DNA from: a virus
Taxonomy: Duplodnaviria; Heunggongvirae; Uroviricota; Caudoviricetes
DNA length: 51,123 nt
Reading direction: 5' to 3' (one strand)
IMG/VR virus record: IMGVR_UViG_638341087_000015
Location: 1 to 51,123 of that record
Positions 18,862 through 19,015 of the stretch are shown here, one piece after another. Each line of letters opens with the position of its first letter. The stretch's first letter is position 1. The notes under the pieces were generated by a model that was given only the letters and a program-made list of their open reading frames with translations, made no database searches and was not told the origin of the DNA. A program made the translations under genes and the position numbers.

Positions 18862-18937
18862 GCCGACTTAGCTCAGTAGGTAGAGCAACTGACTTGTAAT
18901 CAGTAGGTCACCAGTTCGATTCCGGTAGTCGGCACCA
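18862..18937 (+). tRNA. tRNA-Thr (anticodon UGU)
   Basis: 76-nt cloverleaf: acceptor gccgact/agtcggc, anticodon stem actga/tcagt with loop cttgtaa, T-loop ttcgatt, CCA end. Confidence 0.8.
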
Positions 18938-18940
18938 TAT

Positions 18941-19015
18941 GCGGGTATCGTATAATGGCTATTACCTCAGCCTTCCAAGCTGATGATGCGGGTTCGATTC
19001 CCGCTACCCGCTCCA
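18941..19015 (+). tRNA. tRNA-Gly (anticodon UCC)
   Basis: 75-nt cloverleaf nearly identical to E. coli glyT as I recall it; anticodon loop cttccaa; acceptor gcgggta/tacccgc; CCA end. Confidence 0.85.

Follow-up and report, generated by a model that had tools for sequence, protein, structure and literature searches.

What does a lambdoid prophage gain from two tRNA genes placed between its late antiterminator and its lysis genes, and where did they come from? The question is raised by a stretch of DNA of 51,123 nucleotides (nt), IMG/VR virus record IMGVR_UViG_638341087_000015, analysed here at its full length and hereafter called the window. The element is a Rac-like lambdoid prophage, and within it a threonine and a glycine transfer RNA (tRNA) gene lie 3 nt apart. 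We find that the pair is real, functional-looking and ordinary. The explanation we favour, and regard as probable, is that these are two functional elongator tRNA genes forming a host-derived dimer of single origin, which spread among lambdoid phages, was inherited by this prophage and adds capacity for decoding ACA and GGA codons. The presence of tRNA genes downstream of Q is textbook for lambdoid phages and is in this sense already known, the exact cassette being annotated in hundreds of RefSeq genomes; what is new are minor details, namely a TAT junction of single origin, a phage-specific U6:A67 allele, and a conserved promoter with a leader hairpin.

Two tRNA genes between Q and the lysis genes

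Two independent tRNA callers, ARAGORN and the Rfam family RF00005, agree on a tRNA-Thr(UGU) gene (anticodon tgt) at 18862-18937 and a tRNA-Gly(UCC) gene (anticodon tcc) at 18941-19015, both on the plus strand and both with an encoded CCA. Between them lies the spacer TAT (18938-18940, plus strand), a junction by which the phage Thr-Gly dimer can be recognised. ARAGORN called exactly these two tRNA genes in the 51-kb window, and the RF00005 scores were 73.8 bits for Thr and 65.6 bits for Gly, against a gathering score of 29. Both genes have what is expected of an elongator tRNA, with a cloverleaf scoring above that threshold, a 7-nt anticodon loop and an anticodon that begins at position 34. 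The structures, anticodons, 3-nt gap and coordinates given in a preliminary description of this DNA were thereby confirmed.

The slot that holds the pair is bordered upstream by a Q-like late antiterminator gene of the DUF1133 family (17966-18508, plus strand), which matches PHROG 753 'anti-termination protein Q-like' (E=8.6e-80) and Pfam DUF1133 (356 bits), and also Phage_antitermQ at 27.6 bits, narrowly above the cut-off of 26. Its downstream border is a P21-type class II holin gene (19795-20010, plus strand; Pfam PF04971, 119.8 bits, and PHROG holin families), which is followed by a lysozyme gene (20010-20507, plus strand) and then by Rz/Rz1. The Q-like gene, the tRNAs and the holin are all on the plus strand, which is the late-operon strand, so the pair has the placement typical of a lambdoid late region; the PHROG and Pfam matches bear out the earlier statement that it sits between Q and the lysis genes. 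The same slot is likewise occupied by tRNA genes in four relatives (L005, L006, L009 and L011), and in tRNA-less relatives it holds unrelated cargo, a hypothetical open reading frame (ORF) in one and TolA-like genes in another.

Host origin of the tRNA sequences

Compared with Escherichia coli K-12, the tRNA-Thr gene is identical to thrU at 76 of 76 positions and the tRNA-Gly gene to glyT at 73 of 75, which agrees with the near identity to glyT noted in the preliminary description. The two differences, C6->T and G67->A, fall on the two sides of one acceptor-stem pair, so that C:G became U:A with pairing kept, a compensatory change, and neither phage tRNA departs from its host counterpart (thrU or glyT) in the anticodon arm. 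Threonyl-tRNA synthetase (ThrRS) uses G1:C72, C2:G71, G35 and U36 as identity elements, and glycyl-tRNA synthetase (GlyRS) uses U73, G1:C72, C2:G71, G3:C70, C35 and C36. All of the ThrRS elements are present in the phage tRNA-Thr, given its full identity with thrU, and aminoacylation may be predicted at most on that basis. In tRNA-Gly the 6:67 change lies outside the listed GlyRS elements, the gene reading G1 C2 G3 ... C70 G71 C72 U73 CCA. Because the Thr gene equals thrU, the Gly gene equals glyT save for the compensatory 6:67 pair, and sister phage arrays carry a Gly allele identical to glyT (75/75), both genes are, as judged from their sequences, clearly of host origin. The thrU and glyT genes of Salmonella match the phage tRNAs as well as those of E. 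coli do, so that the match does not point to one donor genus.

The host operon has the layout thrU, 8 nt, tyrU, 116 nt, glyT, 6 nt, thrT, tufB. The phage dimer is similar to it in the Thr-then-Gly order and in the anticodons UGU and UCC, but differs in that tyrU, thrT and tufB are missing, that there is no homology to the promoter, leader or trailer, and that its tRNA-Gly has U6:A67. The host interval between thrU and glyT (about 209 nt, including tyrU) is replaced by TAT. Beyond the mature tRNAs we found no match to the host operon, the best local alignments of the 300-nt flanks scoring 15-18, which is background for AT-rich sequence; an upstream AT-rich match to the host flank (score 18) was judged to be compositional. 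With tyrU and thrT absent, the cassette does not qualify as a fragment of the host operon acquired by direct DNA capture. The idea, put forward in the preliminary description, of capture from a host tRNA operon therefore stands in part: the sequences are host-derived and their order is that of thrU-(tyrU)-glyT, but flanking homology is lacking and tyrU with about 200 nt is gone. As to the spacer itself, TAT can be read as the T immediately after host thrU joined to the AT immediately before glyT. A simple internal deletion would leave just these bases, but with a chance expectation of about 4/64 (~0.06) the agreement is no more than suggestive.

A search for the donor of the Gly allele found the exact U6:A67 sequence in 1 of 185,579 species-representative genomes (E. 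ruysiae), and in none as a chromosomal glyT. The E. ruysiae copy is located in the same Rac-like prophage cassette, 96% identical over window positions 17298-20011. Because its sole occurrence among species representatives is in the same prophage cassette, the U6:A67 allele is, on this distribution, phage-derived.

Spread and probable single origin of the Thr-TAT-Gly module

The cassette is common. The 701 base pairs (bp) at 18600-19300 are present at a coverage of at least 80% in 172 of 5,426 complete E. coli genomes, where they are annotated as tRNA-Thr and tRNA-Gly, and a 63-nt query centred on the junction was found at 1,052 places in 869 of these genomes (16%). The exact junction pattern also occurs in at least 119 IMG/VR contigs. 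Among the IMG/VR matches listed, the dimer stands alone in at least 53 contigs, is extended to Ile(CAU)-Lys(UUU)-Thr-Gly in at least 36 and to Ile(CAU)-Arg(UCU)-Thr-Gly in at least 15; 67 of 119 Thr alleles equal thrU, and 53 Gly alleles equal glyT with about 55 having U6:A67 and a few the U6.G67 wobble intermediate. A second compensatory change, in the T-stem, is seen among the same copies. Substitutions of this kind, which keep pairing, indicate selection on a working tRNA.

The TAT spacer was invariant in 9 of 9 phage and prophage copies examined, and the prophages that share the junction differ in their Q genes, holins and neighbours: the dimer is found after at least three different Q types, after a DNA methylase, and after stx2fAB in phage phi467. 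Because the junction is invariant across prophages with such different contexts, the pattern argues for one old founding event, after which the module would have spread among lambdoid phages by recombination. Most likely this prophage inherited it from other phages and did not make a fresh capture. For the capture suggested in the preliminary description, this means an old shared module in place of a local event.

Relatives of the module suggest that its thrU scaffold has been put to other uses. One copy in the LT-IIb prophage SerU-LTIIb (L008, 1122-1197) bears the anticodon UCU (Arg) on a thrU-derived scaffold, and in two IMG/VR contigs of the 'Met-Lys-Lys-Gly' class among the matches listed the thrU-derived scaffold has UUU (Lys). 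The scaffold thus appears to be an evolvable platform on which the anticodon has been switched to UCU or UUU. In the four-tRNA arrays the second tRNA (2927-3003 in both L005 and L006) is Arg(UCU) or Lys(UUU) on one homologous scaffold, the two being 10 substitutions apart. We set aside a match in Morganella phage IME1369_01, a Lys(CUU)-Gly(UCC) pair at a different genomic position, which is not this module.

Architecture of the cassette

The tRNAs are part of a larger conserved unit. Its upstream boundary is a hairpin with a T-run resembling an intrinsic terminator, found by a terminator scan at 18588-18619 (plus strand), 80 nt past the Q stop codon. Two tRNA-less relatives with an approximately 90% identical DUF1133 Q gene lose homology at window positions 18625 (L003) and 18570 (L004); the late promoter cognate to this Q must therefore precede ~18570, and the cassette begins after the 18588-18619 hairpin. 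A match to the enterobacterial small RNA (sRNA) family STnc370 lies over this post-Q terminator (18557-18623, plus strand; 27.9 bits against a gathering score of 54) and is mostly terminator-based, and the region could give a short promoter-proximal late transcript.

Downstream of this boundary is an AT-rich tract (18640-18770, plus strand) with a conserved TTGACG (18755-18760), which may be an UP-element-like region. It lies upstream of a sigma-70-like promoter predicted by a promoter scan at 18771-18798 (plus strand), with a -35 element TTGCGA (18771-18776), a 16-nt spacer and a -10 element TATCAT (18793-18798), and the predicted transcription start is near 18805-18806. The RNA would then begin with a 5' leader stem-loop (18806-18858, plus strand) that RNA folding predicts as GGTTCT-GA-GGGGG, a 27-nt loop and CCCCT-GA-AGAACC, ending 3 nt before tRNA-Thr. 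In 20 distinct upstream variants we found the same layout despite divergent spacer sequences: TTGxxx, spacer, TAWYAT, gap, hairpin, tRNA-Thr. The promoter spacer is 16 nt in 19 of the 20 (18 in one), the gap from promoter to hairpin is 7-8 nt in 19 (10 in that same one), and the hairpin arms are GGTTCYGARGGGG, loop, YYCYYGARGAACC, followed by 3 nt to tRNA-Thr (7 nt in two variants), with loops of 21-40 nt. The tract, the promoter and the hairpin are also kept in copies that are only ~70% identical (L014, L066 and L089).

The leader hairpin shows the marks of a conserved RNA structure. Across 17 distinct arm pairs 91.4% of cells pair, compared with 24-68% when the partner strand is slid, and 4 of the 11 stem pairs change on both sides among the 17 variants; the consensus is GGUUCY-GA-GGGG ... 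CCYY-GA-RGAACC. With moderate confidence we take the leader to form a stem at the RNA level with an invariant GA/GA internal loop. Rfam searches of leader and trailer gave no family above threshold, and sub-threshold matches (STnc370, isrK and STnc100) reflect mostly terminator similarity and were not relied on. We also considered whether the hairpin is the relic of an upstream tRNA, since its 3' arm looks like the last nucleotides of the Arg/Lys tRNA in the four-tRNA arrays (TGAAGAACCA versus TGGCGGTCCA), but no cloverleaf could be drawn. The promoter was likewise rejected as a Q-dependent pR': relatives with an approximately 90% identical Q lack the region, and promoter and hairpin are also found beside other Q types, methylases and stx genes.

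On the other side of the tRNAs a conserved non-coding trailer of about 780 nt (19016-19790, plus strand) travels with them and abuts the ribosome-binding site of the holin. Relatives keep it at 80-99% identity, with either of two holin types following, and the terminator scan places four terminator-like hairpins in it on the plus strand (19115-19136; 19380-19399 with T8; 19691-19706; 19734-19747 with a T-run). We rejected a protein gene in this region, because the ORFs that some public records place here are not kept as reading frames: in the window, stop codons break up the 'hypothetical protein' of L005 (3343-3756), whose frame the nucleotide conservation does not preserve. With a promoter conserved in 20 variants, different neighbours, and four terminator-like hairpins downstream, we infer that the cassette would act as a moron-like autonomous transcription unit. 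Within the trailer, downstream of the tRNAs, the hairpin TTCGGGAGGCACCCGACGCCTCGG is followed by the strong terminator AACCGCCATATCTGGCGG and T8 (window 19310-19405). The same element occurs upstream of the cassette in L014, L066 and L089, and also in the tRNA-less relative L004 (4415-4496), and it looks like a recurrent boundary element of the slot.

Codon demand and the likely role of the module

We compared codon counts in 46 heuristically called window ORFs with those in 42 annotated coding sequences of the K-12 region 100-150 kb, a small baseline of mostly housekeeping genes. ACA is used 16.0 times per 1000 codons in the window versus 5.4 in the K-12 sample (odds ratio 3.0, p<1e-15), and GGA 16.1 versus 6.0 (odds ratio 2.7, p<1e-15); the core genes alone, that is, the window genes other than those below 40% GC, give odds ratios of 2.8 for ACA and 2.7 for GGA. 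A similar ACA bias was described for phage SfI (17.3% versus 7.1% in the host; PMC3636060). Ranked by ratio, AGG, AGA, ATA, TCA, ACA and GGA are the six leading codons. Five of these six are covered by the four-tRNA sister arrays (Ile-CAU, Arg-UCU, Thr-UGU, Gly-UCC), whose Ile(CAU) and Arg(UCU) match the excess of ATA and of AGA/AGG.

The preliminary description had suggested that the tRNAs support translation of the AT-rich cargo, and had named the codon comparison as one check. Run with cargo defined as genes below 40% GC, this comparison does not support the suggestion: GGA is not enriched in cargo (15.3 versus 16.2 per 1000 in core genes, p=0.85), and ACA shows a weak enrichment that is not significant (20.4 versus 15.2, p=0.09). 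Most of the demand is in the non-AT-rich core genes, which hold 179 of 223 ACA and 191 of 224 GGA codons of the window (~80-85%), and the cargo stands out instead for ATA (36.6 per 1000) and AGA (12.5 per 1000), neither of which is read by Thr(UGU) or Gly(UCC). Because most ACA and GGA codons lie in core genes and GGA is not enriched in cargo, demand for these codons is phage-wide and not specific to cargo, and a phage-wide supply role fits better, in agreement with the argument published for SfI (PMC3636060).

A phage-wide top-up of ACA and GGA decoding is thus the most likely role. In the host, thrU (reading ACA/ACG) and glyT (reading GGA/GGG) are single-copy genes for minor isoacceptors. 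We propose that the dimer arose once from the thrU and glyT of an enterobacterium, was cut back to the ends of the mature tRNAs and spread by recombination, and that a sigma-70-type promoter of its own, a structured leader, the two tRNAs and a multi-terminator trailer would make it a small autonomous unit. RNase P would cut the precursor at the 5' end of each tRNA, and exonucleases would remove the 3-nt UAU trailer of tRNA-Thr; RNase P cleavage followed by 3' trimming is known from other phage tRNA dimers with close spacing. Given the position of the cassette between Q and the holin and its late-operon orientation, Q-modified RNA polymerase would be expected to read through it as well after induction, and the supply of Thr and Gly tRNA would rise at the time when lysis and virion proteins are made. 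The gain would be extra capacity for ACA and GGA, codons that are about three times commoner in prophage than in host genes. The terminators would stop transcription from the cassette promoter short of the lysis genes. Were this promoter active in the lysogen, AT-rich cargo (the NleG-like and SopA/NleL-like effector genes, trkG) could profit too.

Several observations weigh against this proposal. ATA, AGA and AGG are enriched more strongly than ACA and GGA, yet the prophage has no tRNA for them, and the host itself supplies both tRNAs, with ACA and GGA not being its rarest codons. The codon ratios depend on heuristic gene calls and on the small, largely housekeeping K-12 sample. In the relative JLK-2012 the Thr copy is degenerate and was not called by ARAGORN, so the module is dispensable in some lineages. 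The promoter, the terminators and the processing steps are predictions from sequence, and Q-dependent read-through is deduced from gene order and strand. Finally, lambdoid coliphages with tRNA genes were found to be neither better nor worse codon-adapted than those without (PMC4631060), so any benefit may be small.

Alternative explanations

A different emphasis, which we consider possible but doubtful, would make the cassette a tRNA moron of the lysogen: transcribed there from its own promoter, with the stem-loop perhaps controlling stability or processing of the precursor, it would raise two minor tRNAs and so tune the expression of AT-rich acquired genes such as the prophage effectors of type III secretion systems (T3SS). 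The stem-loop in question, with its invariant GA/GA internal loop, would be a previously undescribed 5' element that ends 3 nt before tRNA-Thr. Lysogenic conversion in the plainer sense, in which transcription from the cassette promoter in the lysogen doubles the gene dosage of the minor tRNAs and aids AT-rich acquired genes (T3SS effectors, trkG), is in our view unlikely. The conserved promoter is consistent with it, as are four terminators further on, by which the lysis genes would be protected from that promoter, a cargo that includes NleG-like, SopA/NleL-like and TrkG genes at 33-38% GC, and the somewhat higher use of ACA in cargo. The codon comparison speaks against it: the ACA difference is not significant, GGA is not enriched, the bulk of both codons is in core genes, and the codons in which the cargo is rich (ATA and AGA) are not read by these tRNAs; moreover, the same dimer is found in prophages with quite different cargo.

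It is quite unlikely that the genes are neutral hitch-hikers or decaying relics, kept for no other reason than that insertions are tolerated between Q and the lysis genes. Unrelated cargo in the same slot of relatives (a hypothetical ORF, TolA-like genes), the degenerate Thr copy of JLK-2012, and codon adaptation that does not differ in tRNA-carrying lambdoid phages (PMC4631060) would all be expected of a relic. However, here the genes are intact, their stem substitutions are compensatory with a wobble intermediate seen, and the promoter hexamers and leader pairing are conserved where the surroundings fall to ~70% identity. The module also has many phage backgrounds and is present in 16% of the complete E. 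coli genomes, a spread that is likewise hard to reconcile with decay.

The U6:A67 allele, phage-specific and found in about half of the copies among the matches listed, might instead be read as an escape mutation, with the phage tRNAs replacing host tRNAs hit by toxins or defence nucleases. Sister arrays lend this some colour, as next to the dimer they have a Lys(UUU) or Arg(UCU) tRNA whose scaffold has diverged, and show anticodon switches on the thrU scaffold, and tRNA-Lys(UUU) is a known target of anticodon nucleases. We nevertheless regard counter-defence as very unlikely for the pair described here. Escape from an anticodon nuclease calls for an anticodon stem-loop that differs from the host target, and both anticodon arms are identical to those of the host, so a nuclease acting on the anticodon loop would cut both equally and leave only dosage. 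A literature search turned up no E. coli nuclease specific for tRNA-Thr(UGU) or tRNA-Gly(UCC), the 6:67 change keeps pairing in the manner of neutral compensatory drift, and about half of the copies among the matches listed still have the glyT-identical allele. A role in complementing an integration site (tRNA-dependent lysogeny, which PMC10865867 describes for some mycobacteriophages) or as a recombination or attachment target is effectively refuted, because the genes are complete, lie ~17.6 kb from the integrase gene (1-1236, minus strand), and occur in genomes that keep the host thrU-tyrU-glyT locus (2-3 places per record).

Relation to known tRNA arrays and morons

Similar arrays are well documented in lambdoid and P22-like phages. 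An Asn(GUU)-Thr(UGU) pair is found downstream of Q in SfI, Sf6, ST64T, PS3 and P21 (PMC3636060), Stx2a phages have two Arg tRNAs and one 'Met' tRNA near stx2a (PMC7946995; PMC4631060), and a Stx2f phage has a tRNA-Gly plus a tRNA-Thr (PMC5189129). Our pair shares with the arrays of SfI, Sf6, ST64T, PS3 and P21 and with ileZ-argN-argO of Stx2 phages (e.g. 933W) the slot after Q, the late-operon strand, tight packing and over-use of the cognate codons, but its partner is Gly(UCC) and not Asn, Ile or Arg. Here Thr and Gly are also identical or nearly identical to host genes, whereas the Ile and Arg/Lys members of sister arrays visibly differ among themselves.

The closest cases share the identical Thr-TAT-Gly junction: the Stx2f phage phi467 (LN997803), the LT-IIb prophage SerU-LTIIb (KU052038) and vB_EcoS-683R6 (ON470595). 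In vB_EcoS-683R6 the whole cassette is 94% identical over 701 bp, with the same DUF1133 Q, holin and trkG as neighbours. In phi467, by comparison, the dimer follows stx2fAB, has the glyT-identical allele and is followed by a different trailer, and SerU-LTIIb differs in the copy whose thrU scaffold bears UCU (Arg). The cassette also resembles the morons of lambdoid late regions in its putative upstream terminator, sigma-70-like promoter of its own and putative downstream terminators, and in its position between core genes in varied phage backgrounds; it differs in that the payload is two tRNAs and not a protein gene, and in that its autonomy is deduced from conservation. The tRNA cluster of phage T4 includes Thr(UGU), Gly(UCC), Ile(CAU) and Arg(UCU) with a spacing of a few nt and dimers matured by RNase P and 3' trimming. 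However, T4 is virulent and its tRNAs have diverged in sequence from those of the host, while the phage considered here is temperate and its tRNAs are host-identical or nearly so.

Beyond correct annotation of an effector-carrying Rac-like prophage with a common Thr(UGU)-Gly(UCC) module, the finding is of little importance. Even so, a module of single origin that has TAT as its mark and occurs in 16% of complete E. coli genomes can be used as a marker of mosaicism in lambdoid late regions. The U6:A67 allele would let tRNA sequencing tell the prophage tRNA-Gly from glyT, which makes the question of expression in the lysogen versus after induction easily testable, and two candidates for regulatory parts, the conserved promoter and the leader hairpin, are without an Rfam family.

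Other features of the prophage

The remainder of the window contains several further features. In addition to the DUF1133 Q-like gene there is a second Q-type gene ~4 kb upstream of it, a Phage_antitermQ-family ORF (13432-13965, plus strand; 34% GC, 109 bits) with weak similarity to sigma-70 region 4, and the prophage thus has two Q-type genes. Two AT-rich ORFs of 142 and 365 amino acids (34-36% GC; 14596-16118, minus strand), opposite to the early and late genes, had no Pfam or PADLOC match. A trkG gene of the TrkH family (38% GC; 21088-22563, plus strand) lies between Rz/Rz1 and a ParB-like gene, as in Rac, and many E. coli genomes, like vB_EcoS-683R6, have it together with the same tRNA cassette. 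Past the tail-fibre region, in the downstream direction, are an AT-rich gene for an NleG-like T3SS effector (46864-47454, plus strand) and one, also AT-rich, for a SopA/NleL-like HECT E3 ligase of 790 amino acids with pentapeptide repeats (47505-49877, plus strand); together these genes mark an effector-carrying lambdoid element of attaching/effacing-type E. coli. Finally, matches to the RalA antitoxin sRNA of the Rac-type RalR/RalA system (1557-1735, plus strand; 215 bits) and to the sok antisense RNA (16289-16613, plus strand; 116 bits), the latter overlapping a hok-like ORF of 70 amino acids, identify two type I toxin-antitoxin loci in the prophage.

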